Virus record (IMG/VR): IMGVR_UViG_3300030110_002660
Length of the DNA stretch: 64,000 bases
Reading direction: 5' to 3' (one strand)
DNA from: an uncultured virus (IMG/VR IMGVR_UViG_3300030110_002660)
Lineage: Duplodnaviria > Heunggongvirae > Uroviricota > Caudoviricetes
Positions within the stretch are counted from its first letter, which is position 1. Each line of letters starts with the position of its first letter. Below the pieces are notes generated by a model, which was not told the DNA's origin, ran no database searches, and was given only the letters and a program-made list of their open reading frames with translations. The translations under genes were made by a program, and so were the position numbers. Positions 16,124 to 63,786 of the stretch are shown piece by piece.

Positions 16124-16135
16124 GGATAAAAAAAA

Positions 16136-16525: not shown

Positions 16526-16538
16526 GAGGGATAGTTAA

Positions 16539-17192: not shown

Positions 17193-17194
17193 TT

Positions 17195-17202
17195 TATAAA
17201 TA
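17195..17202 (+). promoter_or_regulatory. Late promoter for gp22-gp23
   Basis: TATAAATA immediately after the gp21 stop. Confidence 0.8.
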
Positions 17203-17237
17203 TTAATATAAAAAAACAGGAAAAAGGAGATTTCCAA

Positions 17238-18437: not shown

Positions 18438-18517
18438 TAATAAAGTAAGTGAAATATATTGATGGAAGTAGAGACATATACTAAAATAAAGTAAAATTTA
18501 AAAAGGAGAAACGAAAA

Positions 18518-19846
18518 ATGTTTCAATCAAACAATTTACAAGAAAAGTGGCAGCCAGTACTTGAACATCCAGATTTGGGTGTAATCAATGACCCTTATAG
18601 ACGTGCTGTTACTACTGTTATTCTCGAAAACCAAGAAAAAGCGTTAAGAGAAGATAGAAGCTTTTTGAACGAAGCTGCGCCAGCTAACTCAACTGGTACT
18701 AACGTAGATAATTGGGAGCCAATCCTAATTTCATTAGTTAGACGTGCTATGCCTAACTTGATTGCATATGACATTTGTGGTGTGCAACCAATGACAGGCC
18801 CTACTGGTCTTATTTTCGCAATGAGAAGTAGGTCAGTATCACAAACTGGTGCTGAAGCGTTAGTTAACGAAGCTGATTCTGGTTTGTCAAACGATGACGC
18901 TGCTGGTGATTTAACATCATCTGCAATGACTGGAAGCAACCCTGCAACTCTAAACGATTCACCATCTGCTGGTACATACTTGTCACCAGGCGGTATGACT
19001 ACTGCACAAGGTGAAGCATTAGGAGATGCAGCTGCAAATGCTTTCGCAGAAATGGCTTTCTCAATTGAGAAACAAACTGTTACTGCTAAATCCAGAGCAT
19101 TAAAAGCTGAATATTCTATGGAACTCGCACAAGACCTTAAAGCAATTCATGGTCTTGACGCTGAAACTGAGCTTGCAAACATTCTCTCTGCAGAAATACT
19201 TGCAGAAATAAACAGAGAAGTTGTAAGAACAATTTACATTGTTGCTAAGAAAGGTGCCCAAATTAACACTACTACTGCTGGTATCTTTGACTTAGACACA
19301 GACTCTAATGGTAGATGGTCAGTTGAAAAATTCAAAGGACTATTATTCGCTATCGAAAGAGATGCCAACGCTGTTGGTCAACAAACAAGGAGAGGAAAAG
19401 GAAACATAATTATTTGTTCTGCTGATGTTGCATCTGCACTACAAATGGCAGGTGTCCTTGATTACACTCCAGCATTAAACTCTAATCTTAATGTTGATGA
19501 TACTGCAAACACATTTGCTGGTACACTAAACGGAAGATATAAAGTTTATGTTGACCCATATGCTGCAAACGTAGCTGCATCACAATACTATGTGGTAGGT
19601 TACAGAGGTAGTTCACCTTACGATGCTGGTATCTTCTATTGTCCATACGTACCACTACAAATGGTAAGAGCAGTTGGAGAAGATACTTTCCAACCAAAAA
19701 TTGGATTTAAAACAAGATATGGTATCACAGGTAACCCATATGCTTCAGGTGTACTTGCATCTGGAACTGCTGCTGGTGATGTCGGCGCATTAGACGCAAA
19801 CGATAACGTATACTATCGTAGAGTCAAAGTCACGAATTTAATGTAG
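18518..19846 (+). CDS. gp23: Major capsid protein gp23
   Basis: LVRRAMPNLIAYDICGVQPMTGPTGLIFA, KSRALKAEY, YCPYVPL, FQPKIGFKTRYG; probable maturation site FLNE|AAP. Confidence 0.98.
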   Translation: MFQSNNLQEKWQPVLEHPDLGVINDPYRRAVTTVILENQEKALREDRSFLNEAAPANSTGTNVDNWEPILISLVRRAMPNLIAYDICGVQPMTGPTGLIFAMRSRSVSQTGAEALVNEADSGLSNDDAAGDLTSSAMTGSNPATLNDSPSAGTYLSPGGMTTAQGEALGDAAANAFAEMAFSIEKQTVTAKSRALKAEYSMELAQDLKAIHGLDAETELANILSAEILAEINREVVRTIYIVAKKGAQINTTTAGIFDLDTDSNGRWSVEKFKGLLFAIERDANAVGQQTRRGKGNIIICSADVASALQMAGVLDYTPALNSNLNVDDTANTFAGTLNGRYKVYVDPYAANVAASQYYVVGYRGSSPYDAGIFYCPYVPLQMVRAVGEDTFQPKIGFKTRYGITGNPYASGVLASGTAAGDVGALDANDNVYYRRVKVTNLM

Positions 19847-40308: not shown

Positions 40309-40316
40309 TATAAATA
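40309..40316 (+). promoter_or_regulatory. Late promoter heading the 40.3-49.5 kb block
   Basis: TATAAATA right after the gp41 stop. Confidence 0.8.
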
Positions 40317-40353: not shown

Positions 40354-41751
40354 ATGGGTCGTTTACAAAACGCAGTTCAACAGCTAAAACCAAAAAACCA
40401 ACCGATACTGAATAATGCAGATAAAGTTTTAGGATTAGTTTCTTTGAATGAAGAAATACTTGCTTTATCCGAGGCGAATCTAAAAAAGAGTGATATTGGT
40501 AAAAGAAATAATAAAAATATTTTACAAGATATAATAAACAAACAAAAACCTTTAGAAACTGATAAAGGGAATGTTTCTATTTCATGGATAGATAATTCTA
40601 ACAAAGTTGCATTTGAAAATGGTGATTTTGATAAAGCATTTCCTTCTGGTAAAGAAGTCTTTATTACATCAAAAGGTGATAAAATTAGACTTACACACAT
40701 AACAAAAACAGATATGTTTGGTGGTGGTAAGGGTTCTGGTGGTGGTTCTTCTGGAACAACTGCTGGTGAATCTGCACAATGTGTTTATTTGCAAGCAATT
40801 TGGAATAATCCCAAAACAGATTTTAATGAAGCAGAATTAACACAGGCGTTTAGTCAAACAAAAACTAATGCAACTTTTGATATGATAAAAAATTTATCAC
40901 AGGATTGGGTAGTTTCTTCAACTTTAATTGCCAAATTACTTTATAAAGTTCTTCCTAAAAGGAATTATACTTTTCATAGAGGCTCAGATGATTTTGTAAA
41001 AAATATAATTGAAAAAACATTTAAAAAAACTGGACAAAAAGATTTTACAGATATTAACAAATGGAATCCAGCTGATATATGGATAGTAGATGAATCAAAA
41101 ATAGGTAGTTATGATTTTGCGAATGTAGTAGAACTTCCATATTATAACGAATTACTTTTAAAAGCTTATACTAATAGAGATATCATTGGTGTTTCTTTAA
41201 AGAAAACAGAGAAACCAAAAATAGCTCAAATGAATTGGAAAAAACCTTTTAAAGAACCAAAATTTACAAAAACTTCTTTAGGCAAAAGAGATTTTTTCAA
41301 GTCTAAAGATGGTTATATATTTTTTGATAGTGGAGAAATACAGTTTAGAACTTTTCCAGCGTTTCAAGGTGAGATTATAGGTAAGGTTGCTAAACATGGA
41401 AAAATAAGTGGTGATGCTGGGCCAAAAGGCCCAATAGGTATCGTTATGGCAAAAGCTGGTGCAAAGCCGATTCCACCAAGAAGAGAAATTGAAACATTAA
41501 TTAAAAAAGATAAAAATAAATTTTTCAAAATGTTCTATAATGAATATTTAAGAGCTGGACAAAAAAATATATCAATAAAAGAGTTTATTAACAATTTTAA
41601 AGGAAAGAATAGTGGGTATCTGGAATCCAAATATCTAGTAACTTTAATGTTTAATGAATTAAAAGGTCGAGAACAGAAATTTTTAAGTTTAGCATATAGA
41701 TATGCAAAATCTATATCTGCTAATTCTTCTGTTCATTTAAAGGTATTTTAA
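40354..41751 (+). CDS. Hypothetical protein with PD-(D/E)xK-like nuclease motifs
   Basis: GESAQC...KWNPADIW...IGVSLKK pattern; Gly-rich linker after the N-terminal domain. Confidence 0.5.
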   Translation: MGRLQNAVQQLKPKNQPILNNADKVLGLVSLNEEILALSEANLKKSDIGKRNNKNILQDIINKQKPLETDKGNVSISWIDNSNKVAFENGDFDKAFPSGKEVFITSKGDKIRLTHITKTDMFGGGKGSGGGSSGTTAGESAQCVYLQAIWNNPKTDFNEAELTQAFSQTKTNATFDMIKNLSQDWVVSSTLIAKLLYKVLPKRNYTFHRGSDDFVKNIIEKTFKKTGQKDFTDINKWNPADIWIVDESKIGSYDFANVVELPYYNELLLKAYTNRDIIGVSLKKTEKPKIAQMNWKKPFKEPKFTKTSLGKRDFFKSKDGYIFFDSGEIQFRTFPAFQGEIIGKVAKHGKISGDAGPKGPIGIVMAKAGAKPIPPRREIETLIKKDKNKFFKMFYNEYLRAGQKNISIKEFINNFKGKNSGYLESKYLVTLMFNELKGREQKFLSLAYRYAKSISANSSVHLKVF

Positions 41752-42992
41752 TGACAATAGAATTTTTAACAGAGGATAAACAAGGAAAGAATTTACATCT
41801 CGAACATCTCGAAGATGAAATAATTAATTTCGGTGTTAAGGGTGGAAGAGCTTCTATAGAGTTTCTTCGTTCACTTCGTAATATGTTATCTGGTGCTTCT
41901 CGAAGTTCTGTTAATATGACAGTTAAGTGGGATGGTGCTCCAGCAGTATTTGCTGGTGTCGACCCAGCAGATAATAAATTTTTTGTTGCAAAGAAATCTG
42001 TGTTCAATGTAACACCAAAATTATATAAAACAAATGCAGATGTTGATGCAGATACATCTGGAGATTTAAGTACGAAGTTAAAGGTTGCTCTTAAAGAATT
42101 TTCTAAGTTAGGAATCAAAGGAGTATTGCAAGGCGATTTAATGTTCACAAAAGATAGTGTTGAAAATGATACAATAGATGGTGTCAAGTATTATACTTTT
42201 CAACCGAACACAATTGTTTATGCAGTTCCAGTTGATTCTGATTTAGGAAAAACTATTAAGAGTGCTAACATAGGTGTTGTGTGGCACACCACTTATACTG
42301 GAAAAGAACTTCAAGATATGAAAGCATCATTTGGTGTCAATATAAATTCATTAACTAAATCCTCAAAAGTATGGATGGATGATGCAAGTTATAAAGATAC
42401 ATCTGGTAAATCTACATTTACTGCAAAGGAAACAGAAGCGGTTACATCATTATTATCAAAAACAGGAGTTGCATTTCAAAAAATTAATGTGCCGACATTA
42501 AATAGATTTTTAAAATTACAGGAAAGTCTTTCTGGAAAATTTGCAAAGGTAACTATTAAGACATATAATAACAAATTTGTAAGACAAGGTGTACCTATAA
42601 CGAATCCAAGCAAACATGCACAAGGATATTTGCAGTATGTGAAAGACCAGTTTGATGATGAAACTAAAAAAATAAAAACACTAGCAAAGAAACAGGAATA
42701 CGAAACTAGAAAAACAGAATATGTTAGAGAGTTTAAAAAACAAATACCTACTTTAATACAAGTGTTTACTATGCAGAAATATTTGGTTGAAGCAAAGATT
42801 TTGATAGTTAAAAAACTAAATAGTATTAAACAATTGACCGATACATTTGTTAAAACATCTGATGGATTTAAAGTAACGAATCCTGAAGGTTATGTTGCTA
42901 TAGATAGAATAAGTGGAAACGCAGTCAAGTTAGTAGATAGAATGGAGTTTAGTTTTAATAACTTTACTGCCATAAAAAATTGGGATAAGTAA
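41751..42992 (+). CDS. Conserved T4-like protein with ligase/nucleotidyltransferase-like motifs
   Basis: HLEHLED, TVKWDGAP (KxDG), QGDLMF, PEGYV, KLVDR resemble motifs I, III, IV and V of the ATP-dependent ligase superfamily. Confidence 0.55.
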   Translation: MTIEFLTEDKQGKNLHLEHLEDEIINFGVKGGRASIEFLRSLRNMLSGASRSSVNMTVKWDGAPAVFAGVDPADNKFFVAKKSVFNVTPKLYKTNADVDADTSGDLSTKLKVALKEFSKLGIKGVLQGDLMFTKDSVENDTIDGVKYYTFQPNTIVYAVPVDSDLGKTIKSANIGVVWHTTYTGKELQDMKASFGVNINSLTKSSKVWMDDASYKDTSGKSTFTAKETEAVTSLLSKTGVAFQKINVPTLNRFLKLQESLSGKFAKVTIKTYNNKFVRQGVPITNPSKHAQGYLQYVKDQFDDETKKIKTLAKKQEYETRKTEYVREFKKQIPTLIQVFTMQKYLVEAKILIVKKLNSIKQLTDTFVKTSDGFKVTNPEGYVAIDRISGNAVKLVDRMEFSFNNFTAIKNWDK

Positions 42993-43403
42993 ATGAAATC
43001 ATTTAAAGAGATAACAGTAGATGTAGAAAAATCAAAAGGTTTGCATGATTTAGAAGAAAGAAAACCATTAAATATTGCACAACGAAGAAAACTTGCAATA
43101 AGAATGAAACGACTTTCAAAATCTGGTGCGTTTAAAAAGAAAAGAGAACTATCACTTCGTAGAGTTGCTACAGGTGATAAACTTATGAAACGTGCAATGA
43201 AACGTGCTAAAATGGTAATGATTAAAAAGTTTTATGGAAACATAGATTATAAGAATCTGCCTATTTCAGCAAAGATGAAAATAGATATGCAACTTCAAAA
43301 GAAAGCATCTATGATACCAAAGATTGCAAAGAAATTAGTAAGGATAATGAGAAAACAAGAAGTAGAAAGAGTTAGAAAATTAAAAGCAGGTGGTAACAAA
43401 TAA
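42993..43403 (+). CDS. Very basic protein, probable internal/core protein
   Basis: MKSFKE leader; Lys/Arg-rich body. Confidence 0.6.
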   Translation: MKSFKEITVDVEKSKGLHDLEERKPLNIAQRRKLAIRMKRLSKSGAFKKKRELSLRRVATGDKLMKRAMKRAKMVMIKKFYGNIDYKNLPISAKMKIDMQLQKKASMIPKIAKKLVRIMRKQEVERVRKLKAGGNK

Positions 43404-44225
43404 ATGATGAAAGGTTTTAAACAGGTTTTAACAGAAGCAAAAGAAAAAGTTGTTTTTGCGTTTGGAAGATTCAATCCGCCTACTACTGGTCACGAAAAAT
43501 TAATTAATAAAGTTGCGAGTGTTGCTGGTTCTAGTGATTATAGAATTTATCCATCTTTTACAAAAAACCCGACAAAAGACCCATTACCACATGCACTTAA
43601 AATTGCATATATGAGAAAGATGTTTCCGAAACATGCAAGAAAAATTATTGCAGACCAAGATGCAACTACAGCAATGGCGATTGCAACTAAGTTGTATGAT
43701 GAAGGTTATAAAAATCTAGTAATGGTTGCTGGTTCTGATAGAATTAAAGAATTTCAAAAATTATTAGATACTTATAATGGTGTTAAAGGAAAACGACATG
43801 GATATTATAAATTTGAAAGTATAGGTGTTGTATCTGCTGGCGAGAGAGACCCCGATGCAGAGGGTGTAACAGGAATGTCTGCTTCAAAAATGAGAAGTGC
43901 TGCCGCTAGTGGAGATATAAGTGCGTTCAAAAGTGGACTTCCAAAAGGATTTAAGGGTGCAGAAAGATTATTTAAAGATGTAAGAAAACATATGAATATT
44001 CGTGATGAAAAACAATGGATAGGAGAAATGACTGATTATGAACAATTTAGAGATGCATATCTTACAGGAAAGATATTGCGTGTAGGAGAAAAGACAAAAC
44101 TAGGTGAAATACTAAGACGTGGAACAAATTATGTAACTATTCTTACTGAAAAGAAAGGATATAAAAAAGTTTGGTTGGAAACCTTACAAGAACATATGAT
44201 TACTGAAACTTTAAATAGCAAATAA
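43404..44225 (+). CDS. HIGH-family nucleotidyltransferase (cytidylyltransferase-like)
   Basis: FGRFNPPTTGHEKL, VAGSDR, SAGERDPD, MSASKMR. Confidence 0.85.
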   Translation: MMKGFKQVLTEAKEKVVFAFGRFNPPTTGHEKLINKVASVAGSSDYRIYPSFTKNPTKDPLPHALKIAYMRKMFPKHARKIIADQDATTAMAIATKLYDEGYKNLVMVAGSDRIKEFQKLLDTYNGVKGKRHGYYKFESIGVVSAGERDPDAEGVTGMSASKMRSAAASGDISAFKSGLPKGFKGAERLFKDVRKHMNIRDEKQWIGEMTDYEQFRDAYLTGKILRVGEKTKLGEILRRGTNYVTILTEKKGYKKVWLETLQEHMITETLNSK

Positions 44226-44247
44226 GATAAATATAAAGAAAGGAAAT

Positions 44248-44754
44248 ATGGAAATGGATAAATTTTATAACGATTTTTACACAAAGTTTGGCCGAACTGT
44301 TCATGATATACGAGAACAACAAGAACGAGATATTGTTGAGTATGCTGAAAATGGATTAACCGAAGATGATATAGTTATTCTTACTGATATGGATAGACGT
44401 AGAGTTCGTGAGATTATAGGAAATATTAAACCAGTACAAGAAGAAACAGAACTTAATGAATTTCAAGGATATGATTCTATCGTAAGTAAGGATAAAACAG
44501 CAAGTGCAATATTCAAAATTGCTAGGACTAAAGGTGGTAAGGGTGTTATTGAATTTAAAGGTGGTAAACTTACTCTTGATGATAAGTCAGCACGAATTAT
44601 TTTAGATATCGTTGCTCAAGAAGAAAAGTGGCCACAAGCTCAACTTAGAGATGCTATACAAAATCCAAAATCATATACAGTAAGAGAAGTAATGAAGTTA
44701 GCTCAAGATGCTAAGAAAGCACAAGGGGATAAAAGACCACTAACATCAACATAG
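44248..44754 (+). CDS. Hypothetical protein with EETELNE linker
   Basis: AGGA RBS; GATAAATA late-promoter variant at 44226. Confidence 0.6.
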   Translation: MEMDKFYNDFYTKFGRTVHDIREQQERDIVEYAENGLTEDDIVILTDMDRRRVREIIGNIKPVQEETELNEFQGYDSIVSKDKTASAIFKIARTKGGKGVIEFKGGKLTLDDKSARIILDIVAQEEKWPQAQLRDAIQNPKSYTVREVMKLAQDAKKAQGDKRPLTST

Positions 44755-44764
44755 GACAGGAAAC

Positions 44765-46747
44765 ATGGAAAAAAATAAATTAGAACGTATGAATCTGTCG
44801 AAATATTTAAAGACAAAATATAAAGATGTTAAAGATGTCGACCCTGCTGACGTTGATGATGTTGCAACTGCAAAAGATATTGCAAGTGCAGATAAAAACA
44901 TAATGATACAACTTAAAAAACAAATTGGTTTGGGTAATTCATTCAAAGTAGAATTTGGAGATAAGAAAACAGCAAGAGTTCCAGATAAAATTGCGAAGGC
45001 AGCAATTGCACTCTATGATAAACATAAAACATCTCAACAAAAAGGTGATTATCAAAATACGATTTCTAAGTCTTATAAAGATTTACTTTCTTTTATTAGA
45101 AAAGGAAAACCAGTTGCAATGGAAGCGGTAGTTATTCAAGAACCACTCGACCCAGAAAAACATGATGTAAAAAAATATATTGATGATTTTCAAAAATCTA
45201 CTAATCCACAATTTGATGGACTATCAAAAGAAAAACGCAAGGAGATGGCGATAGCTGCTTATCTAAAAGCAAAAGATAAAAAAGAAGATATGAAAAATTC
45301 TAAAGATAAAAAAGAAGAAACATTAATACGTAGTGTCCAACAAATAATGTTGAACAAAGATACTAAAAAAGAAGTTACAGAAGCTTATCTTGACTATGTA
45401 CTTCCAAAATTAAGTTTTAATAGTACGTCTGAGTTTAAGAAAGCAGTAAAGTATTTTGAAAGTCAAGGTCTTTCGCAAGGTTATCGTGGTAATGAAATGG
45501 AGCCTGCTTTTGATTTTAATAAATTTAAAGATGAGATAACCATTTTTAATCTTGATGAACTTTCACCTAGCATTAATTCTAAAAGAGGTGTAGATAGTTT
45601 CTTGAAGAAAGGAAGATTTAAATATGAATTAAATTATATTCGTAATGAAGGTTTTGCTTCAGATGCTCAAAGAAGAGCTGCATTTGCTAGTGGTTACAAA
45701 GAAAAAGGCAAAAAGAAAAAAGAAGAAGTTGAACTTGATGAACAACCAAAACATGAAATTACTGTAGGTAATTACACAACTAAGTTTTTTCACATGTGTG
45801 GCTCTGCACAAGAAGTAATGAAAAAATACGCAGATAAAGATGGCGCAGAGGAACTTGCTAAAATGCAAGATGTATTCTTTAAAATGGAAAAAGATGCAAT
45901 GAACTCTGGTAGTGCAAGTGAAGAACAGAAAAAGAAAGCAGAAATACTATATGATAAGATTATAACTAAAGCAAAAGATGTCGGTATTGAAGATGAAGTT
46001 CAAAAGTATATGATAAACCACTTAACATCAATGACTAAAGGCGACCCTAAACTTGGATTTGGTAGAACTGATATAAATGAAGAAGTTAAACTTGATGAAA
46101 AATTAGATAAAGATGATGAAACTATTATTAAAAAAGTTATAGGTAAATTAAAGAAAGCAAGTCAAGCACACGCTGGACAATCTAAAGACTTGCAAAAAGC
46201 ACTTGATGAAGATGAACTTGGTGAAAACTTTAGAACACTTGCTACTAAGGGTATGGGTACAGAAACAAAACAACGAGCTAAAGTAGGACAGGAATTAGAT
46301 TTTTACGAACCCAAAAGAGGTGATAAGTTTTTAGGTAAGATTATAAAAATGGATAATAAAGGTTATAAGGTACAGGGTTTAGATAGACAATTTAAAGGTA
46401 AAATATTTACATTTAAATATTATGATAAAAACAAAGCAAAAAATCTTCTTCAAAAAGAAGAACATATTGATGAAAGAAGTAAAATTTCAGATGTTGTTGC
46501 AAAAACTGATGCAGAAAGACTTGCTATTGTAAAAAAACATTATCCATTTGTTGCTGATATTACAGATAAAAGAAAAAAAGAAAAAACTGTTCAAGGTTTC
46601 TTTCATTTTCTAAAAAATAAAGATAAAAAAGCAGTTGATAAATTAGATAACATAATTAAAAAATTAGGTACGAAAAAAGGAATAGCATATATTGATTCAT
46701 ATCGTCAAAATTATTTAAGAATGAGTAATTTAGAGGAAGAAAAATAA
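44765..46747 (+). CDS. Modular Lys/Glu-rich protein, probable internal head polyprotein
   Basis: Short modules separated by EEVELDE, EEVKLDE, EEHIDE, ELGE and EVTE. Confidence 0.6.
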   Translation: MEKNKLERMNLSKYLKTKYKDVKDVDPADVDDVATAKDIASADKNIMIQLKKQIGLGNSFKVEFGDKKTARVPDKIAKAAIALYDKHKTSQQKGDYQNTISKSYKDLLSFIRKGKPVAMEAVVIQEPLDPEKHDVKKYIDDFQKSTNPQFDGLSKEKRKEMAIAAYLKAKDKKEDMKNSKDKKEETLIRSVQQIMLNKDTKKEVTEAYLDYVLPKLSFNSTSEFKKAVKYFESQGLSQGYRGNEMEPAFDFNKFKDEITIFNLDELSPSINSKRGVDSFLKKGRFKYELNYIRNEGFASDAQRRAAFASGYKEKGKKKKEEVELDEQPKHEITVGNYTTKFFHMCGSAQEVMKKYADKDGAEELAKMQDVFFKMEKDAMNSGSASEEQKKKAEILYDKIITKAKDVGIEDEVQKYMINHLTSMTKGDPKLGFGRTDINEEVKLDEKLDKDDETIIKKVIGKLKKASQAHAGQSKDLQKALDEDELGENFRTLATKGMGTETKQRAKVGQELDFYEPKRGDKFLGKIIKMDNKGYKVQGLDRQFKGKIFTFKYYDKNKAKNLLQKEEHIDERSKISDVVAKTDAERLAIVKKHYPFVADITDKRKKEKTVQGFFHFLKNKDKKAVDKLDNIIKKLGTKKGIAYIDSYRQNYLRMSNLEEEK

Positions 46748-46748
46748 G

Positions 46749-47114
46749 ATGGGAAAAAAATATTTAGATACAAAAAAGAATTCTTTAGAAGAGGCTGTTC
46801 AAAAAATTTGGAATGGAGATACAATTACAGAAGCACCAGATGATTTAGAATATGTTGTATTAGATTTTGATAAGATGTCTGAGTTTAAGAAAGCAAGAAA
46901 CTATCTTGATAAAAATGGCATTAGACCACCAGGTTACGGTGGTGGTGGTGGAGCAGAGTATGATTTTGATAGGGATATGTATGGAGATGAGTTAAGCATT
47001 TTAAATATTGATGAGATACATCCACGAATTAAGATGAAGACTAAAAGAGATGTTGAAAATTTCTTGAAGAAAGGAAGATTTAAATTTAAATTAAGGTATA
47101 TAGGGCCACAATAA
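46749..47114 (+). CDS. Hypothetical protein: shared leader plus a module paralogous to part of 44765-46747
   Basis: MGKKYLDTKKNSLEEAV leader; SEFKKA...FLKKGRFK module. Confidence 0.65.
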   Translation: MGKKYLDTKKNSLEEAVQKIWNGDTITEAPDDLEYVVLDFDKMSEFKKARNYLDKNGIRPPGYGGGGGAEYDFDRDMYGDELSILNIDEIHPRIKMKTKRDVENFLKKGRFKFKLRYIGPQ

Positions 47115-47164
47115 TGGGAAAAAAATATTTAGATACCAAAAAGAATTCGTTAGAAGATGCAGTT
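46749..47164 (+). repeat. Duplicated ~50-nt gene starts (46749-46799 and 47114-47164)
   Basis: ATGGGAAAAAAATATTTAGATAC(A/C)AAAAAGAATTC(T/G)TTAGAAGA(G/T)GC(T/A)GTT; the differences fall at third codon positions. Confidence 0.9.
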
Positions 47165-47560
47165 TTGGAAGTTGTTAAATTTGAAGAAGTAGAACTTGAT
47201 GAAAAACAAAATACATACACAGTAGTTCATATTAAAAAAGGTAAAGAAATTATAAAAGCAAAAAGTTCATATGAAGCTGCAAAAAAGTTTGCACAGATGA
47301 AAAGACTTAAAAACACAGCAGGAGTTGATGCTTATATTATGGAAGAAGTAGATATGCAAGAATCAGGTCATACTGATGTGGCATCTATGAAAACACAAGT
47401 ACAGATTGCTATGGAAGCTTTACAAAAGATGAATACAGAATTAGCAAAACTAAATGATGAAGATGACCTTCCTACTTGGTGGACAAACAAAGTTGCAACA
47501 GCGGTAAATAAATTAGATGGTATGGCTGACTACATTAGTGCAAAAGGGAAAACAACATAA
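47114..47560 (+). CDS. Hypothetical modular protein with the same leader
   Basis: MGKKYLDTKKNSLEDAV...EEVELDE...EEVDMQE. Confidence 0.65.
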   Translation: MGKKYLDTKKNSLEDAVLEVVKFEEVELDEKQNTYTVVHIKKGKEIIKAKSSYEAAKKFAQMKRLKNTAGVDAYIMEEVDMQESGHTDVASMKTQVQIAMEALQKMNTELAKLNDEDDLPTWWTNKVATAVNKLDGMADYISAKGKTT

Positions 47561-47591
47561 CAGAAGAATAGGATTATAGAGGAAGAAAACA

Positions 47592-48926
47592 ATGAAAAAA
47601 CAAAATGATTACTTTAAAAAAATAGAAAAGGGAACATTGGAAGATGCTGTTGAACAAATTTGGAATCCAGATAGTAAAGAAGAACAACTTGATGAAGTTG
47701 TTACTAACTATAAACTACTTGCGAAAGATATTAAAAAAGAATTCCAACAACAATTAACAAAGAAAAAGTTTCTTACTTTAAACGATATTCAAAGTTATGT
47801 AATGTCTAATGCAGATTCTCCACATAAAGTTGAAACTGATGAGATTGTTAAAGAACTTAAAAAACTTCGTATAACAGTTGCTGGAAAGTTTCCACATACT
47901 AGAGAAGAAGTTACTTCTAAACAGTTGCAAAAAGCAATAGGTAAAGCTAAGGGGATGAAAGTAAAACACGATTGTGCTACTAAAGTAGAACATGCAGAAT
48001 GGGGTAAAGGAAATCCATTAAAAGAACAACATACACTCGATGAAGATGGTACTGTTACACATTATGATATTATGTTTGAACATGGACTAGAGAAAGACGT
48101 TTCAGTTTCTACACTAAAGATACTTGCAAGTTCAATGCATGAACATGCAATTAATCCAGATAAGAATGACCTACAAGAAATGAATCCAACTGACCATGTT
48201 AAGAAAAAGGGTGACAAGTTTTGTGTATATAATGCAGATGGTACTATTGCAAAAGAATTTGACAATAGAGAAGATGCAGAAAAGTATGCAATTGCCAACC
48301 ACGACAAGTTGATGGCAACTAAGAAAGAAGAAGTTGAAATTGATGAAGGAACGAAATATATTGGTCGTGCTGGTGAAGGAACACAATTCCAAGTTGTTTA
48401 TACAAATAAGAAAAGGCGAGATGGAATTTACAGATTAGAAAAAGATAGAACTTTAGGAAAAATCTATAATCAAAGAGAAGCAGAAAAAATGGTTAAAAAA
48501 TTATCTGCTGATAAAAGAAATAGTGACTTTGAATATAGATTTGTACCAAAAGGTAATATTAACCATAGAAGTGGAGAAGTTGTTACTCCAGTCGATTTTT
48601 ACAAAGTAGGTTTCAAAAATCGTAGAGAACAAGTAACTTCACCATCAAAATATATTGATATCTTAACTAAATTTCAAGAAGAAACAGAATATCAAAAGTT
48701 TTTTAAATCTGCAATGAAAAAGTTTGGTGTAAAAAGTCCTAGTGAATTAGATGGCGATAAAGAAAAAGAATTTTATGACTATGTAGATAAAAATTGGAAG
48801 GGTAAAAATGAGCCAAAGGAAGTTGGTGAAAAACGTAAACCTAATGGTAAAACATTAACGGGGAAACCTAAAGACAATATTGATGTAAATCCAAAAACTT
48901 CTGATATTAAAGCTGGTAAATATTAG
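47592..48926 (+). CDS. Modular protein, probable internal head polyprotein
   Basis: Related leader (KGTLEDAVEQIWN); linkers EEQLDE, DLQE, EEVEIDE; module HDCATKVEHAEWGKG. Confidence 0.6.
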   Translation: MKKQNDYFKKIEKGTLEDAVEQIWNPDSKEEQLDEVVTNYKLLAKDIKKEFQQQLTKKKFLTLNDIQSYVMSNADSPHKVETDEIVKELKKLRITVAGKFPHTREEVTSKQLQKAIGKAKGMKVKHDCATKVEHAEWGKGNPLKEQHTLDEDGTVTHYDIMFEHGLEKDVSVSTLKILASSMHEHAINPDKNDLQEMNPTDHVKKKGDKFCVYNADGTIAKEFDNREDAEKYAIANHDKLMATKKEEVEIDEGTKYIGRAGEGTQFQVVYTNKKRRDGIYRLEKDRTLGKIYNQREAEKMVKKLSADKRNSDFEYRFVPKGNINHRSGEVVTPVDFYKVGFKNRREQVTSPSKYIDILTKFQEETEYQKFFKSAMKKFGVKSPSELDGDKEKEFYDYVDKNWKGKNEPKEVGEKRKPNGKTLTGKPKDNIDVNPKTSDIKAGKY

Positions 48927-48931
48927 GAAAT

Positions 48932-49483
48932 ATGAAACAATTTTATGATGTTAGGTATGCATATCTTTCAGAACAAGAGAATTCTAAATTACCAGAGATT
49001 TATATTGATTTAGATGGTGTTTTAGTAGATTTAGAAAAGGGTGCATTAGAAACACTTCTTGATAAGTATCCTAAAATTAAAAGTTGGTTAGAAGTTCCAC
49101 AAGAAGATAGATGGAAGGTAATTAATAAAACAAAAGATTTTTGGAAAAATTTAGAATGGATGCCAAATTCAAAAAGACTTTGGAAAATGGTAAGTAAATA
49201 TCCATCACATGTATTAAGTGCATATTCATCGAGGGATGATAATTCTAAGAGGGATAAGTTGGTTTGGGTAAATAAAAATATGAGAGAATTACCCAGAAAT
49301 AGAATAAACATAGTAAAAAGACAAGATAAACAAAAATTTGCAGTTGATAAGGGAAATCCTAATGTCCTTATTGACGACCACCTTAAAAATGTAGATGAGT
49401 GGAAAAAAGCAGGTGGCATAGGAATATTACATAAAGATGTTAGTACTACTATACGACAATTAAAAAAATTAGGATATAAATAA
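48932..49483 (+). CDS. HAD-family 5'(3')-deoxyribonucleotidase-like phosphatase
   Basis: IYIDLDGVLVD (DxD), LS, K, LIDD, W..AGGIGILH. Confidence 0.88.
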   Translation: MKQFYDVRYAYLSEQENSKLPEIYIDLDGVLVDLEKGALETLLDKYPKIKSWLEVPQEDRWKVINKTKDFWKNLEWMPNSKRLWKMVSKYPSHVLSAYSSRDDNSKRDKLVWVNKNMRELPRNRINIVKRQDKQKFAVDKGNPNVLIDDHLKNVDEWKKAGGIGILHKDVSTTIRQLKKLGYK

Positions 49484-50900: not shown

Positions 50901-51122
50901 ATGACAGAAAAACTGATTAAATATGGTGCTGGCGGAAAACCTATGGTTGATGAAAAACAAACATTGATTGAGGTTTCTCCCGAAGCTCCTGAAATTACAT
51001 CTACTAAAAAGACAAGTAGAAAGAAAAAGAAAGTTTTAACTGAAGTAATATCTGATGAATCTTCTAATATAAAATTGGAAGATTCTAATGATGATAAGGG
51101 AAATAAAAATGAAAAGATTTAA
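50901..51122 (+). CDS. Hypothetical protein
   Basis: 73-aa ORF with GAGG RBS; contains LIE and LTE sites. Confidence 0.5.
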   Translation: MTEKLIKYGAGGKPMVDEKQTLIEVSPEAPEITSTKKTSRKKKKVLTEVISDESSNIKLEDSNDDKGNKNEKI

Positions 51123-51570
51123 AAGTTTTGTAACAGAAGAATCACGTTCAGATTTGCCAGCATCTAGTGTTGGAGTTAATCCAGGCTTTGGTGGTGAAAT
51201 GATTGGTGATAATATGAATCTTGCAGACCTTAGTAATGATATGGTTGTAAAAGAATTGAACTCATATGTTGGTTCGATTAGTGGAGAATATTTAAATCCA
51301 TACCATGCAATCAAAAAATTACGTGAAGCATTGAATTCTGTGGGTATTGATTTTAATGTACCTACTTTTTCAGGCGACAATGGTGAAATATCTGAAGTGT
51401 TGATTGTTCATGGTGGTAAATTTGGAAAAACTGGAGAAGAAGCACCAGACGAAATAACAAATGACCCAACTGGACAAGCACACATGAGAGAAAATCCAAT
51501 TAAGATTCATTTTACACACGATTTAAGTCCTGCTGGCTCAACTCTGTTGACTGCAAGACTTGGTGAATAG
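51109..51570 (+). CDS. Hypothetical protein with a capsid-targeting-like leader
   Basis: Start re-called at MKRFKSFVTEE (AAGG RBS); GGKFGKT motif. Confidence 0.65.
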   Translation: MKRFKSFVTEESRSDLPASSVGVNPGFGGEMIGDNMNLADLSNDMVVKELNSYVGSISGEYLNPYHAIKKLREALNSVGIDFNVPTFSGDNGEISEVLIVHGGKFGKTGEEAPDEITNDPTGQAHMRENPIKIHFTHDLSPAGSTLLTARLGE

Positions 51571-51603
51571 TAGATTTAGACTTTAACAAGTTGTGGTTTT
51601 ATT

Positions 51604-51966
51604 ATGTATGAAAAGATAACACAGGATAACTGGATGATGTTTGCTATTAAGCATTACAATAATCCAGAATGTGAAGGCGAACAAGAGTTTAAAGATGATT
51701 TAAAGAAATTTAAATACATTAAACGACTTCTTCGCAAATATTATGAAACAGGTAATTTAAAAAAAACCTTGTTATTGAATCATATAACACTTTTGATTAA
51801 TGTGTTTGGTGGAGAAGTAGCTGCAACTTTGTTATTGTTTAAAATAGATAGGAAATATTGGGGTGCATTAAAAGCATTTATGTTATTTTTAAATATATTA
51901 AGACCAGATGAATTACTTGATATAGAAACTGACGAGGTGCTTTTAAAAGAATTAAAAGAGTTATAA
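51604..51966 (+). CDS. Conserved T4-like hypothetical protein
   Basis: FAIKHYNNP.C...EF..DLKKFKYIKRLL...LLLNHI...NVFG. Confidence 0.75.
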   Translation: MYEKITQDNWMMFAIKHYNNPECEGEQEFKDDLKKFKYIKRLLRKYYETGNLKKTLLLNHITLLINVFGGEVAATLLLFKIDRKYWGALKAFMLFLNILRPDELLDIETDEVLLKELKEL

Positions 51967-51968
51967 AG

Positions 51969-52703
51969 ATGGAAAAAAAATTTACAACATTTAAAGAATT
52001 TACTTATTCACGACCTGATAGCACTAAGTTTCCAATAGCTAAAAAAGGTGGTGGCGTAGAAAGGTATAAAAAGCTTGGTAGTGATGCAAATTTAAAAAAA
52101 GCTATGGCTGATGCCGAAAAAATAGTTCCAATTAGACAAAGCCCAAAACAATTAAAACAATTTATTGCTATTCTTAAAAAGAAGTATAAAGAATATGGTG
52201 GTAAGGATAAAGACCTTTTAAATTCCTTTACAGAAAAATTAGAACAAAAGATATCAGAATCATTTAAAGAAGATGTATTAACAGAAACTAGAAATCCATT
52301 CAAATATGACCATTCACTTTATGCCAGAGATAAGGATACAGCGCCAAGAAAACCGGGATGGACAAGAATATCTGCTGAAAAAATGCTTGTACGAGGTGGA
52401 AGCGCACCAAAAGAACTTTTAGATTTATTTGCTAACAAAATGAATCAATCAAATAAAAGTGATAAAGAAAGTCTTGAATATGCAGTTAAGAAAGGAAATA
52501 AATCGAGTATGCTTATCAATTCTTTTAAAGAATCAATTGAAGAAGAATATAAACCAGAAGTCAAAAAGGCTGAGTTAGACCTTATAAAACAAATAAAAGC
52601 GTATGTATATCTACCAATATCTGCACAAGAACGTGCAGTAGATAAATCACTCAAACAATTAAAAGATGTAATCAAAAAATTAAAAGGTAAAACACGAACA
52701 TAA
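51969..52703 (+). CDS. Modular basic protein, probable internal protein
   Basis: Leader KKFTTFKEF; internal SFTE, SFKEDVLTE and SFKESIEE repeats. Confidence 0.55.
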   Translation: MEKKFTTFKEFTYSRPDSTKFPIAKKGGGVERYKKLGSDANLKKAMADAEKIVPIRQSPKQLKQFIAILKKKYKEYGGKDKDLLNSFTEKLEQKISESFKEDVLTETRNPFKYDHSLYARDKDTAPRKPGWTRISAEKMLVRGGSAPKELLDLFANKMNQSNKSDKESLEYAVKKGNKSSMLINSFKESIEEEYKPEVKKAELDLIKQIKAYVYLPISAQERAVDKSLKQLKDVIKKLKGKTRT

Positions 52704-52720
52704 GATAAAGGAAAATAGAA

Positions 52721-53332
52721 ATGGGCTCAGCAATTGATTTATTTGTCGCATATCGTTTTATAAGGATTCTTACAACTCCTTTTGAAAAATCAGATGCATT
52801 TAAATTAGGTATTATAGACAATAAAGGTAATAGAATTAAAAAAGAAAATTCTAGTAAACCTGCTGTTGAATTAACAACTTCCGAATTAAAAAACGCATAT
52901 ACTATTTTACATAAACTTGTTTTTAATATTAAAAAAATATTTTTGAAAGTGCCTGGCATAAAAACAAAAGTAGGTACATATGCAGCTGCATTATTTTTAC
53001 TTAAAGATACATTTAAAGAACATTTTGAAGACCCACGATTTATAGAAAAAACATTTTTGGAATATTTAAAAGAAAATTATGAAATAGATGATAGTATATC
53101 TGAAGAAGTCATTGGATTTGGAGAGATATTACCTAAAGGAGAGTATGTACTTCAAAGTGATATTTTAAGTCGACAGTCAGAAGATATAGTTGCTAAAAAA
53201 GGTGATAAAGTTTTTGCGACACAAGATACTTCTCCTACAGATACTATTTTAGGTGTAGAAATCTTTTCTGTTATTCATGAAAAATCAAAAGAAACAATAT
53301 ATATAAGCTTAGAGGATATAAAAGAGAGATGA
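52721..53332 (+). CDS. Conserved T4-like hypothetical protein
   Basis: DLFVAYRFIRILTTPF...AFKLGIID.KG...YT.LHKLVFNIK...YAAALFLLK. Confidence 0.75.
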   Translation: MGSAIDLFVAYRFIRILTTPFEKSDAFKLGIIDNKGNRIKKENSSKPAVELTTSELKNAYTILHKLVFNIKKIFLKVPGIKTKVGTYAAALFLLKDTFKEHFEDPRFIEKTFLEYLKENYEIDDSISEEVIGFGEILPKGEYVLQSDILSRQSEDIVAKKGDKVFATQDTSPTDTILGVEIFSVIHEKSKETIYISLEDIKER

Positions 53333-53619
53333 ATAAGAAACCAAAATTTGCTGAAATAATGAAACGATATTATACTGATGAAACATTAGGACTCGAAAAA
53401 CCTAAAACTGAATTGCCAGAAGAAGTACCAACAAACGCAACTGGTACAGCAGTATCAGGAACAGGTGATGATAGTTCTACTGTTCCAGTTCCACCGAGAA
53501 AGAAAAAAAAGTTTATTCAAATGGACGGTAGAATGAGAGAAGCTAAAAAATTCGTTGAACGTATCATGAAATTAAGAGCAAAAAGAGAAGAAGCAAAAAA
53601 ACAAAGACAGGTTAGTTAA
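53329..53619 (+). CDS. Hypothetical protein
   Basis: EEVPTNA motif; basic C-terminus; overlaps the previous stop. Confidence 0.6.
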   Translation: MNKKPKFAEIMKRYYTDETLGLEKPKTELPEEVPTNATGTAVSGTGDDSSTVPVPPRKKKKFIQMDGRMREAKKFVERIMKLRAKREEAKKQRQVS

Positions 53620-53621
53620 AA

Positions 53622-54227
53622 ATGAAAAAAACTTTTAAGGAATATGGTTATCCTTATCTTCCTATTGATTCATTTAAACCCGAATCCGATTTAAATGCAT
53701 CTACTCTCAATGCATATGGTTCTAGTGGTGCTAGTTATTTCGACACATATAAACCAATGGTAACAGGTCAAAAAAGAAAATTAGTATCTAAATCTCAACT
53801 AGACCAAGTTGAGAAGTATGCAGATAAAATTTTTAGGTCTTTAAAGATTGATATAGAATTTTCTAAACATTTTCTTGAAAGATTAAATGATGCAAGAAAC
53901 AAGGAACAAATAACTACTAACGAATTACTTAGTTTATTTAAAAAATCACGACAAAAACATGGTACTAAAATAAAAGATATGGGTGCAAAAGCACAAGCAG
54001 TCATTGCTGATATGAATAGTGATGTTAATATACCATTTGTATTGACTATAGATAAAAAAAATAATGAATTAGATTTGATAGCTAAAACGGTAATGAGAAA
54101 AAAAGATTTCAAAACAAGTAATCCAGTACTAAGAGTAGAGAATTTTAAAAACTTTAAAGAATTTAATGAATTGTTGGATACAGTTGATAAACTCGATAAA
54201 GCAAAGAAACCAAATAATTCCAAATAA
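53622..54227 (+). CDS. Hypothetical protein, possible RelE/BECR-like fold
   Basis: MKKTFKEY leader; IEFSKHFLERLND...KTVMRK pattern. Confidence 0.5.
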   Translation: MKKTFKEYGYPYLPIDSFKPESDLNASTLNAYGSSGASYFDTYKPMVTGQKRKLVSKSQLDQVEKYADKIFRSLKIDIEFSKHFLERLNDARNKEQITTNELLSLFKKSRQKHGTKIKDMGAKAQAVIADMNSDVNIPFVLTIDKKNNELDLIAKTVMRKKDFKTSNPVLRVENFKNFKEFNELLDTVDKLDKAKKPNNSK

Positions 54228-61308: not shown

Positions 61309-63786
61309 TTGGAGAATATTTTGTTCAAATACGTTAAAACTATATTAAAGTATCTTTTCATAGTTTTTATAGCATCGTGTTCTTGGACTGGAATGACTCG
61401 AGCAAATGTTACAGTTACTTCAACATCAGTAGATGTCATTCAACAAAATACACCACAACAAGGTGATACCTCAACTGTCACAACTACTACCACAAACACC
61501 ACAACCACAACAACTGTACCGGGTTATAATCAAAATGTTGTTTCAGAACAAACAACAAAAACAGGAGATGTTTTAACGAACTCTACTTTTGGTACAGGGG
61601 GAACATATTCAGATGATGGTTGGACGATGACTGGTTATGATTCCCATCATGGTGGAGAAGCAGCAAATTATGGTGGTGGTAATGCACCAGGCGGCTCTTG
61701 GGCTACTGGACTTGATTCTAAAGCAGAACAAAGTATATCTGTTAAAGATGATGGTGGATTAACTCAAGCAGAAATTAATAATGGATTTAAATCTGAATTA
61801 TCAGCAGACATATGGTATTGGCATAATTATGGAAGTAATACTACTACAATGACACAAACTATAACAGGTGCTAGTGGAAATGTAACGACACAAGAAAGAA
61901 TAATATCTGGGAAAAATGCTAGTAATACTAATAATATTTTTGTTAATTATAGCGATACTTATATTAATACTGGAAATACAGAAACAGATTATACTATTAA
62001 AGTAACTATTTTTAATGCTGGTACAGGTTATCATGGTGGGCATTGGGGGCCAGATATTGATGATGTAGAATTGGATATAGAATACAATGAGATTACTACT
62101 CAATGGGTTGCCCCTGTTACAACATCAAATACAGTTATAACAGAATCAGTTAGCACAGCAGTTGTATTTTGCTGGGAAAAAACACCATCAACTTGTCCCG
62201 ATGAAGGCATAACTGATATTACTGATGATATATTTGACGACCTTGAAACAGTTGAAGATACAATTGAGGAAAGATTTGAAGAAGAAGATGCATACTTTGA
62301 TACAGAAATAGAATTTTTTGAAGAAGAAGTTTATGTAATTGAAGATGAAGCTTTTGAAGAAACATTTGAAACAAGTATAGTAGAAGAAGATATTGAAGAT
62401 ATGTTTGCTGGTGTTTTTGATGGAATGGAAATGGGTGATATCTTTGATTTTTTTGAAACAGATAATGATATGGGAAGTGTAGATGATTTGAATATAGAAG
62501 AAGAAACATTTACTGAGATGGGATTTGAAGAACCACCAATGATGGAAGAATTTGAAGAAATGTCAACTGAACTATATGAAGAATTAGATATGCCAATGGA
62601 CATGTTTGAAGCGTTACCACCACCACCAATGATGGAAACAGAAATGGATATGGAAATGGACATGTATGAAGAACTACCACCACCACCAACAATGATAGAA
62701 ACAGAAGTGGATATGGATATTGATGAAACACAAACGACAACATTTCAAGTTATCGGTGAGAAACCAGATATGGAAACAGGAATGGATATCGAAACAGAAA
62801 TGGATATGGAGATGGATGAACAACCATCTACTATGACATTTGAAAGTAGTGTTGGTGATGATGAAATGGATATGGACATGGACGAACAACCATCTACGAT
62901 GACATTTGAAAGCAATGTTGCTTCTAATGAATCAGAAGAATTTGATAGCAATGAATCAGTTGAAACAGAAGATTTAGTTTCAGATGCATCAGAAGAAATG
63001 GGTGAAGAACCTATGGTAGAAGAAAAACCTACTACACAAACATTTACAAGTATGACAAATGAAGAAGAAGTAGTTGAAGAAAAACCTACAACAACAGAAG
63101 ATAATTTAATTGCAGAAGCAGATGAAGTAACTGAAGAAATGCCTACTGAAACTACAGAAGAATCAATTGAATCAGAACCAATTGCAAAATCAGATAGTGT
63201 TGAAGAAGAAGTAGATTCTCCAACTGAGGAAAAAGAAGAAAAGTCAACTCTTATATCTAAAAAAGAATCTAATGAAGAAGAAGATAAACCAAAAGATAAA
63301 AAATCTGATACTACAACAAGTAAAGTAAAAGTAATAGATAAAACAAAAACAAAAACAACAATTTCAAATGCAGAAGAACAAAAACAACAAAAAGTTGAAC
63401 TGAAATTAGATATTGATAAACTTACTGAAAAGATTGAGGAAAAGGTTGCAGATGTAAATAAACAATTAGTCGCTGTAAGTTATATTGTATCAGAAGTGAT
63501 GGTAAAGAATCAACCAAACATAACTGAAGCGTATAAGAATAGGAATTCTCGTTTTTTTGATAATCGGCAATTATATAAAAATCAATCAAAAATATATGAG
63601 GATAATAATGTTATGTTAGGTGAATATAATTATAGCATTTATGAAAAAGAAAATACTGTACTTGTAGCAATGAGTGGCGAAGATGGTATGTTGAAATATC
63701 AAACTAACCTAAATAATGCTGTAAACAAAAGACAACAATTAGAACGAGAATTATATATTCTCAAAACAAAAAGTTTAAAGAGGTAA
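61309..63786 (+). CDS. Large exported protein: beta-sandwich-like domain, Glu/Asp/Met-rich repeats, C-terminal coiled coil (start may be TTG 61321)
   Basis: Hydrophobic N-terminus (IASC or TRA cleavage); GGHWGPDIDDV; CWEKTPSTC; long acidic low-complexity region. GGAG at 61311 favours a start at 61321. Confidence 0.75.
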   Translation: MENILFKYVKTILKYLFIVFIASCSWTGMTRANVTVTSTSVDVIQQNTPQQGDTSTVTTTTTNTTTTTTVPGYNQNVVSEQTTKTGDVLTNSTFGTGGTYSDDGWTMTGYDSHHGGEAANYGGGNAPGGSWATGLDSKAEQSISVKDDGGLTQAEINNGFKSELSADIWYWHNYGSNTTTMTQTITGASGNVTTQERIISGKNASNTNNIFVNYSDTYINTGNTETDYTIKVTIFNAGTGYHGGHWGPDIDDVELDIEYNEITTQWVAPVTTSNTVITESVSTAVVFCWEKTPSTCPDEGITDITDDIFDDLETVEDTIEERFEEEDAYFDTEIEFFEEEVYVIEDEAFEETFETSIVEEDIEDMFAGVFDGMEMGDIFDFFETDNDMGSVDDLNIEEETFTEMGFEEPPMMEEFEEMSTELYEELDMPMDMFEALPPPPMMETEMDMEMDMYEELPPPPTMIETEVDMDIDETQTTTFQVIGEKPDMETGMDIETEMDMEMDEQPSTMTFESSVGDDEMDMDMDEQPSTMTFESNVASNESEEFDSNESVETEDLVSDASEEMGEEPMVEEKPTTQTFTSMTNEEEVVEEKPTTTEDNLIAEADEVTEEMPTETTEESIESEPIAKSDSVEEEVDSPTEEKEEKSTLISKKESNEEEDKPKDKKSDTTTSKVKVIDKTKTKTTISNAEEQKQQKVELKLDIDKLTEKIEEKVADVNKQLVAVSYIVSEVMVKNQPNITEAYKNRNSRFFDNRQLYKNQSKIYEDNNVMLGEYNYSIYEKENTVLVAMSGEDGMLKYQTNLNNAVNKRQQLERELYILKTKSLKR
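62610..63095 (+). repeat. Intragenic imperfect tandem duplications
   Basis: LPPPP(M/T)M.ETE.DM twice, EMDM(E/D)MDEQPSTMTFES twice, VEEKPTT twice. Confidence 0.85.

Follow-up and report, generated by a model that had tools for sequence, protein, structure and literature searches.

T4-type heads matured by the protease gp21 carry small, often basic and variable cargo, namely IPI, IPII and IPIII (internal proteins) and Alt (PMC9026906, PMC12373910). Each gene encodes one small protein with one N-terminal propeptide; Alt also loses a C-terminal piece. The protease cuts after L/I-X-E, as first observed at a Glu-Ala bond. It removes targeting leaders of 10-19 residues from the internal proteins and fragments the core proteins, which are cut at many sites and mostly removed (PMC9026906). 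We describe a locus that resembles this system but differs in architecture. The locus, hereafter the cassette, comprises five consecutive open reading frames (ORF1 to ORF5; 44248-48926) in a 64,000-nucleotide stretch of DNA from an uncultured virus (IMG/VR IMGVR_UViG_3300030110_002660), hereafter the window. As in T4 internal proteins, leaders and predicted mature-protein starts lie at L/I-x-E, a likeness at the level of the motif. Unlike those proteins, cassette genes hold up to eight modules with repeated internal sites. These sites are acidic linkers of the form EEVELDE. Neither the ORFs nor the 18 modules into which we split them matched a T4 Ip family in PHROG, Pfam or NCBIfam.

Other systems share single traits with the cassette. 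In SPN3US, phiKZ and 201phi2-1, many head ejection proteins are processed by a homologue of gp21 that cuts behind a short x-x-Glu motif, with several sites per propeptide (PMC10052503). However, all cuts identified in SPN3US, except self-cleavage, remove N-terminal propeptides and none is reported there to free a series of mature domains. Polyvalent proteins of phages and conjugative elements also fuse unrelated domains in varying combinations, for which delivery with the DNA and proteolytic release were proposed (PMC5512222). Those domains are enzymatic and usually include their own metallopeptidase (PMC5512222, PMC7824862). Conversely, the cassette has modules of 25-110 residues, with a repeated linker and without recognised enzymes or a fused peptidase. 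The polyvalent hub domains (MPTase, ART, SWI2/SNF2, methylase and ArdC-N) were detected by family scans neither in the five ORFs nor in 60 cassette proteins of relatives. The PeSL repeats of T4-like phages, like the linker, are short, conserved and an exchange point between unrelated sequences (PMC4122927, PMC2839356). Whereas PeSLs are intergenic, combine an early promoter with a stem-loop and swap whole genes (PMC4122927), the linker is coding, in frame and swaps domains. The cassette works like the T4 internal-protein system with a PeSL-like exchange repeat. Yet it is a member of neither, because its genes hold many modules and its repeat is coding.

In pelagimyophages, the region between the replication and structural modules is hypervariable; the terms 'protease' and 'cytidyl' do not occur in the available text of that study (PMC7029224). 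A polyprotein strategy for tailed-phage head cargo is not described in the literature searchable here, where coverage of subscription papers is sparse, and we found no published account of this architecture.

The feature is real and widespread, and comparison of relatives shows module shuffling at the linker. We think it likely that the ORFs encode late-made head-cargo polyproteins cut by gp21 at the linkers, with the linker DNA serving as an in-frame crossover point. Briefly, the polyproteins would be made late and enter the prohead core through their leaders. There, gp21 would cut at exposed acidic linkers, after the linker Glu. Many mini-proteins of 25-160 residues would be released, remain in the head and be ejected with the DNA. 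Recombination between linker copies, and between leader repeats, would add, remove and reorder modules in frame. If true, a single targeting leader would let T4-like phages load many different small proteins, with reshuffling at a level finer than whole genes. An earlier interpretation, hereafter the sequence-only reading, had proposed packaged polyproteins, cut by gp21 and possibly shuffled at the linkers, that yield anti-defence or host-takeover effectors. Shuffling, breakpoints at linkers and conservation of the 21-nucleotide element withstood our sequence tests; no result here supports the proposed role.

Linkers, module boundaries and exchange

Module boundaries were set from motifs and homology ends (Table 1). 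Four of the five ORFs hold 2-8 modules each. The same four carry an EEVELDE-type linker; ORF3, which the sequence-only reading had counted as linker-bearing, has only a leader-DTITE/module junction. All eight linker coordinates given in that reading were correct when checked on the sequence. The pattern EEx{1,2}[LIM][DNQ]E occurs 8 times in the 1,541 residues of the five ORFs, compared with once in the 21,255 residues encoded by the 74-kb contig's remaining + strand ORFs. In 2,000 shuffles, the count never reached 8 (shuffle mean 0.04). This pattern was composed after inspection of the sequence. Hence, relatives provide the fair test. We used 80 loci found via the cytidylyltransferase gene that heads the cassette, together with loci from further searches, and dropped six same-contig duplicates. 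Between the cytidylyltransferase and NT5C genes of these relatives, a near-identical pattern occurred 92 times in 65,645 residues; outside, it occurred 13 times in 138,745. Shuffles of the same cassettes gave a mean of 1.6 and a maximum of 4 copies (100 shuffles). The set contains some tail-fibre-like genes, inserted in a few loci, that dilute the enrichment. Bare (I/L)xE is weakly enriched in the five ORFs (23 versus a shuffle mean of 15.8, which 67 of 2,000 shuffles reach). We conclude that the extended acidic form carries the signal.

Modules recur in new contexts among relatives (given as L numbers). Fifteen of the 18 were found among 743 non-identical proteins of related loci, in other genes, positions and neighbourhoods; modules 4a, 5b and 5d had no matches in this set. 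The search left out near-identical and duplicate loci, and its matching rows include close relatives. Separately, the 5b-5c stretch matched 271 phage records, mostly of cyanophages. Module 2g lies in ORF2 of the window and in the last gene of L004. Module 2e is part of a cytidylyltransferase fusion in L034 and L009 and is a separate gene in L012. L004 carries a tandem duplicate of one module between linkers, and both L003 and L004 have an extra module inserted at the ORF1 linker. The near-identical L002 is without ORF3, and homology switches within the 51-nucleotide leader repeat. Since modules move, duplicate and fuse among relatives, an invariant module order, named by the sequence-only reading among its refuting results, is excluded. 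That reading also held the modules to be mostly unrelated. Not all are: 2c and its paralogue, the module of ORF3, have 71% DNA identity over 243 nucleotides.

The residues before a module follow a simple rule. Hydrophobic-x-Glu directly precedes 22 of 22 matches to 4b, which follow LSE, LNE, IKE, INE, MHE and similar motifs, and all five matches to each of 2e and 5a. Glu directly precedes 11 of 11 matches to 2d. Where the canonical 21-nucleotide linker (the 21-mer) has decayed, the rule is often still kept. Among the matches listed, viral contigs hold at least 134 exact copies of the 21-mer at 125 loci. In the same set, at least 88 left and at least 90 right flank families form at least 111 pairs, and of 27 left families that recur, 14 are joined to more than one partner.

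We then turned to homology breakpoints in 124 cassette proteins (167 before 80% dereplication), after masking the motif together with the four residues upstream of it. Homology began internally at 618 points, of which 47.1% lay 1-4 residues after hydrophobic-x-Glu, compared with 7.3% at random (6.4-fold). Eight control residues gave 2.3-3.6-fold, and masking itself biases this test. Homology ends fell at hydrophobic-x-Glu 3.3-fold more than expected, versus 1.3-2.2-fold for controls. At the DNA level, without masking, hydrophobic-x-Glu codons contained 78 of 220 starts and 83 of 232 ends, where about 37 were expected by chance (about 2-fold). The null reached at most 54 (starts) and 57 (ends) in 1,000 draws, and four control motifs showed no DNA breakpoint enrichment. 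Shared linker bases draw an alignment end into the linker only when that end already adjoins it. Six of 14 breakpoints in the window read as in or beside a linker (45130, 46216, 46455, 47674, 47686 and 47912). Aligning the locus across relatives, a check that the sequence-only reading had asked for, thus found breakpoints enriched at linkers in protein and DNA.

The linkers are conserved as DNA beyond coding need. We compared 44 linkers from 14 loci; some are orthologous, yet the bias holds in separate lineages. CTT encodes the linker Leu in 35 of 36 cases, compared with 25% in the background and 23% where Leu follows a Glu elsewhere. For the second Glu, GAA is used in 44 of 44 (73% in the background). 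Codon bias at the Asp is partly contextual, GAT making up 85% of other DE pairs; that at the Leu is not. Linkers from different loci have 86% synonymous identity, versus 52% expected, and those within a locus 89%. Concerted evolution within genomes was weak (100 of 2,000 permutations). The CTT form occurs in about 420 viral contig stretches (an estimate) and the TTA form in 72, although TTA is the commoner Leu codon in cassette genes. Among the matches listed, 127 of 134 exact copies are in an open EEVELDE frame and none is in another open frame. Silent-site conservation and the CTT excess indicate that the linker spreads or is kept as DNA. This fits a frame-preserving crossover point, and module exchange by recombination at the 21-mer is, from these comparisons, probable.

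Some further observations concern the modules in circulation. In four of four marine runs, summed contig depth at 45644-45847 was several-fold to more than 20-fold above neighbouring bins. Hence, module 2d and its linker are common to many co-occurring genomes. A variant in L082 and run X8 is without about 10 codons right after the 48327 linker (window 48348-48380). Contigs of four metagenome runs yielded no reliable module-skipping variant; joint sides spanned only 20-29 letters and middles were undefined. An HNH-like module lies inside the cytidylyltransferase fusion at L028:508-4311 and L041:1340-4255 (Pfam HNH_3, below the cut-off in L041). An acidic module with a DxDxDGDxD loop, which we take to resemble a calcium-binding loop, recurs at L093:11607-12362, L033:14071-14724 and L095:9926-11347. 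It is common to Methylophilales phage Melnitz, metagenomic relatives and a virion-detected S-SM1 protein, and is absent from the window.

Probable processing, packaging and expression

The sequence-only reading had named gp21 (16539-17192) as the processing enzyme and pointed to FLNE/AA in the capsid protein gp23. Family matches, and the position of the motif at residue 52, agreed with both statements. The L-N-E/A of gp23 is likely its maturation site, a prediction from position and motif. The exact EEVELDE 21-mer also occurs in the C-terminal tail of a homologue of the scaffold gp22 (L107:1-396, L119, L185 and L215), gp22 being a gp21 substrate in T4. These copies form one near-identical group of 4 with 39% identity to gp22 of the window. 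The gp22 tail is a possible origin of the linker. Among the 134 exact linkers in the matches listed, Ala comes next 39 times, Gly 21 times, Lys 19 times and Val 15 times. Cutting at the linkers by gp21 is, judged from these motifs, quite probable.

In most cytidylyltransferase fusions, the chain opens with M-K/R-x-F, has an aromatic residue near position 4 and reaches a hydrophobic-x-Glu motif at residue 9-12. The leaders of the gene at 43404 and of most of its homologues fit the capsid targeting sequence as described in PMC9026906, the comparison being with that description. Leaders of other cassette genes are longer and conserved.

Virion proteomes of cyanophages bear on packaging. In purified S-SM1 virions, the cytidylyltransferase GC190 gave 25 counts and the products of the next genes, GC1454 and GC1455, gave 10 and 7, respectively (PMC3037559). 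The S-CREM2 virion proteome includes ORF154-156, at the cytidylyltransferase position (PMC10665884). At the same position, S-SZBM1_140 and S-SZBM1_139 are in the virion proteome of their phage (PMC9146016), and S-SCSM1 virions contain an NMNAT-like protein (PMC9602691). The cyanophages are linked to the window by position and by modules shared through third proteins. Thus, S-SM1_191 has a homologue in Syn9 gp185, a protein with module 5b in common with ORF5 (45%), and a short module of SZBM1_139 recurs in cassettes of relatives. Very probably, judging by these homologies, cassette proteins are packaged in the virion. If true, hypothetical 'structural proteins' encoded after the cytidylyltransferase in cyanophage virion proteomes are explained. 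We infer both packaging and cutting, and consider them well founded. Survival and ejection of the products are slightly favoured.

Promoter scans suggest when the cassette is expressed. We used what we take to be the T4 late promoter consensus. An exact match lies at 40309 and the next only at 49475. Late transcription, within a late operon, is thus probable for the cassette. Immediately ahead of ORF1, at 44226-44233, there is a copy with one mismatch. The consensus had 15 matches, 14 on the + strand, a total no higher than in shuffles. Sigma-70 promoter and terminator scans were at chance level, with no terminator-like site at any linker.

Alternative explanations and the role of the products

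Several results weigh against cut and packaged cargo exchanged at linkers. About 65% of DNA homology ends lie away from hydrophobic-x-Glu sites; many of these are probably plain divergence. Five cyanophage loci are without a fixed 21-mer (more than 4 mismatches). In L002, the extra module of ORF4 ends about 10 nucleotides ahead of the linker, and both matches to 5c are without a preceding Glu. The leaders of ORF2-5 are unlike the short M-K-x-F leader. Module interiors contain 85 (L/I)xE sites, versus 75.5 from composition, with no depletion relative to shuffles and with LDE inside 5b and 2c. Folding must therefore protect the interiors and give selectivity. GC190 cytidylyltransferase was not detected in virions of S-PM2 or Syn9 (PMC3037559), and the authors of the S-CREM2 (PMC10665884) and S-SCSM1 (PMC9602691) studies allow for carry-over from infected cells. 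Virion-detected cyanophage proteins had no direct BLAST match to the five ORFs.

Packaged and gp21-cut products could also act as prohead core or as DNA-packing filler. Their pieces would be degraded, or stay as basic peptides that neutralise DNA or shape the core, with no host role. Models are gp22, gp67 and gp68, or IPIII in assembly, and most T4 core protein is removed (PMC9026906). The linker in the gp22 tail points the same way, as does the size of several modules (only 24-46 residues). Twelve of 20 predicted products have an isoelectric point of at least 8, and module interiors contain 16% Lys. However, such basicity, like that of T4 internal proteins, is as compatible with effectors as with DNA-packing peptides. 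If the host is a streamlined bacterium, it may offer few defence targets; restriction-modification is present in 1 of more than 100 SAR11 genomes (PMC7029224). Against a filler, modules are 60-80% conserved across distant phages, with invariant motifs, and 2e is a predicted compact domain. Filler would also hardly account for broad turnover among unrelated folds or for fusion to an enzyme-like domain. We consider filler improbable.

The check by structure prediction proposed in the sequence-only reading bears on 2e, which is predicted to fold alone between two linkers (AF2 pLDDT 89, pTM 0.84; 24-row alignment). At least one module is thus a predicted autonomous fold. Single-sequence AF2 of ORF2 was poor (pLDDT 41, pTM 0.20), with higher-confidence patches inside 2a, 2b, 2e and 2h; linkers were below 50, as were whole modules, so that this model is no gauge of folds across linkers. 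Module 2e had no PDB match at E 0.001. Its best VIA match (Z 7.6) is a generic helical bundle and its best BFVD matches (E 0.003-0.009) are uncharacterised phage proteins, one a 924-residue cytidylyltransferase fusion. In the ESM Atlas, 5b matched only unnamed viral clusters and the ORF3 module had no usable match. Searches for stand-alone 2e and 5b returned mostly fragments of longer proteins.

Family searches were equally silent on function. Comparison of the five ORFs with PHROGs, Pfam and NCBIfam assigned none. The 18 modules matched only PHROGs without assigned function (5b and 5e), and all their Pfam matches were below the cut-off. The 60 cassette proteins of relatives, hand-picked mostly from 88 listed, gave only DUF5824, DUF3008 and sub-threshold HNH_3 and PAP2 in Pfam. 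Hence, for the anti-defence or host-takeover effectors of the sequence-only reading, no module matched a family or fold of known function. The whole case for an anti-defence role lies in the rapid turnover of unrelated small folds, as expected of an arms race, and in an analogy, T4 Ip1-3 each blocking one GmrSD variant (PMC12373910). Action of the products against host defences is a tentative suggestion. A shade more tentative is the wider proposal of a combinatorial effector library in abundant marine T4-like phages. Here, one 21-nucleotide element would be both gp21 cut site and crossover, and mini-effectors from at least about 90 pooled families would recombine into polyproteins that carry one loading tag, are cut inside the head and are injected against defences.

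Uncut multidomain proteins offer a different account. Linkers would be flexible acidic spacers left by recombination, and each protein would, in the manner of polyvalent proteins, function as a whole inside virions or infected cells. Conservation of the 21-mer as DNA would explain a repeated peptide without a protease, the tripeptide (L/I)xE is common (287 occurrences in the remaining ORFs of the contig), and N4 vRNAP and ArdC are delivered unprocessed (PMC5512222). Yet boundaries with unrelated DNA still end in hydrophobic-x-Glu (LSE, IKE, INE, MHE and VKE), so that the peptide rule is kept where the 21-mer is lost. The preference for small residues at P1' and the linker in the gp22 tail also argue for cutting, and we give uncut proteins little credence.

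Finally, a 21-mer that is first a site for a dedicated recombinase, as in a cassette array, with the protease site secondary, would account for extreme silent-site conservation, for near-equal identity within and between loci and for the canonical copy's inverted repeat of 5 bp about a single base, but is very improbable given that the 47183 and 48327 copies break this repeat, that exchange also occurs at leader repeats and beside the linker, that no site-specific recombinase was among 28 window proteins scanned and that homogenisation through ordinary recombination would give the same codon pattern. The inverted repeat, at 45724-45734, depends on GTT and CTT as codons and may be a binding site or a product of chance.

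For polyproteins cut by gp21, the preferred reading, there is a practical corollary. If true, it would supply a rule by which a long hypothetical ORF could be split, yielding a defined library of candidates for injection. The cultured relative Melnitz has a syntenic cassette with the exact linker, and for cyanophages there are published virion spectra.

The locus and its surroundings

Table 1. Coordinates of cassette features and associated genes in the window
Feature	Coordinates	Strand	Basis or remark
T4-type late promoter, exact match	40309-40316	+	next exact match at 49475
gp21-type prohead protease, proposed processing enzyme	16539-17192	+	PHROG 207, E 4e-80; Pfam Peptidase_S77, E 6e-35
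gp23 major capsid protein	18518-19846	+	family matches; FLNE/AA at residue 52
Cytidylyltransferase/NMNAT-like gene, upstream border, heads cassette	43404-44225	+	family scans; 11-residue leader ending LTE
ORF1, 168 residues: module 1a, linker, module 1b	44248-44754	+	motifs, homology
Linker EETELNE	44440-44460	+	ORF1, between 1a and 1b
ORF2, 660 residues, eight modules	44765-46747	+	motifs, homology ends
Module 2a	44786-45121	+	motifs, homology ends
Module 2b	45143-45280	+	motifs, homology ends
Module 2c	45383-45643	+	motifs, homology ends
Module 2d	45650-45721	+	motifs, homology ends
Linker EEVELDE, canonical 21-mer	45722-45742	+	ORF2; exact copies in Melnitz and in about 420 (estimate) stretches of viral contigs
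Module 2e, predicted autonomous domain	45743-46078	+	motifs, homology ends; AF2: beta-hairpin and four helices, invariant MCGSAQ motif
Linker EEVKLDE	46079-46099	+	ORF2; EEVELDE in L002
Module 2f	46100-46204	+	motifs, homology ends
Degenerate linker DEDELGE	46205-46225	+	ORF2; L003 DNA homology begins inside, at 46216
Module 2g	46226-46456	+	motifs, homology ends
Linker EEHIDE	46457-46474	+	ORF2; DNA homology with relatives stops at 46455-46462
Module 2h	46475-46726	+	motifs, homology ends
ORF3, 121 residues: conserved leader and one module (46833-47111)	46749-47114	+	without EE..LDE linker
Leader repeat, 51 nucleotides, ORF3 and ORF4 copies	46749-46799 and 47114-47164	+	92% identical; second kind of exchange point
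ORF4, 148 residues: leader, linker, module 4a, linker, module 4b (47363-47557)	47114-47560	+	motifs, homology
Linker EEVELDE	47183-47203	+	ORF4
Linker EEVDMQE	47342-47362	+	ORF4
ORF5, 444 residues: leader, linker, modules 5a to 5e	47592-48926	+	
Linker EEQLDE	47679-47696	+	ORF5
Module 5a	47697-47903	+	
EEV remnant	47904-47912	+	ORF5
Module 5b	47913-48167	+	
Module 5c	48180-48326	+	
Linker EEVEIDE	48327-48347	+	ORF5
Module 5d	48348-48620	+	
Module 5e	48681-48809	+	
C-terminal motif KTLTGK..IDVNP of last cassette gene	48849-48893	+	14 of 27 distinct tails of last genes follow the strict pattern
NT5C-like HAD gene, constant downstream border	48932-49483	+	family scans; relatives

The contig, from a T4-like myovirus, is 74 kb long, and its first 64 kb form the window. 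Profile searches placed portal, protease, scaffold and capsid genes at 14066-19846. Its gp23 is 76% identical to that of Melnitz and 71-75% identical to those of the pelagimyophages HTVC008M and Mosig. Near-identical DNA is present in marine metagenomes from several studies. By these matches, the phage is a marine T4-like myovirus near Melnitz. The order cytidylyltransferase, cassette, NT5C is kept in relatives, including Melnitz and HTVC008M. In relatives, the cytidylyltransferase-like protein is fused to long module strings (up to 1,267 residues). The C-terminal motif of the last cassette gene is a possible docking signal.

The cargo system reaches past 44248-48926, upstream to 43404 and, in relatives, to genes near 51088-54227. 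L004 has the ORF3 module inserted directly behind the M-K-x-F-type leader of its 51088 homologue, and L005 has a 457-residue gene with three linkers after DUF7207. Hence, the cargo region extends beyond the five ORFs. Short M-K-x-F-type leaders also open the neighbouring genes at 42993, 48932, 51088, 51969 and 53622. The 43404 protein ends in a second small module, which in P-HM1 opens the next gene. The cassette is bracketed by DUF6267 and the NMNAT/cytidylyltransferase-like gene (41751-44225) on one side and by the NT5C-like HAD gene on the other, within what seems to be one late operon. These bracketing genes possibly form a packaged nucleotide or NAD kit. A long acidic ORF at 61309-63786 has 15% Glu and 14 (L/I)xE sites.

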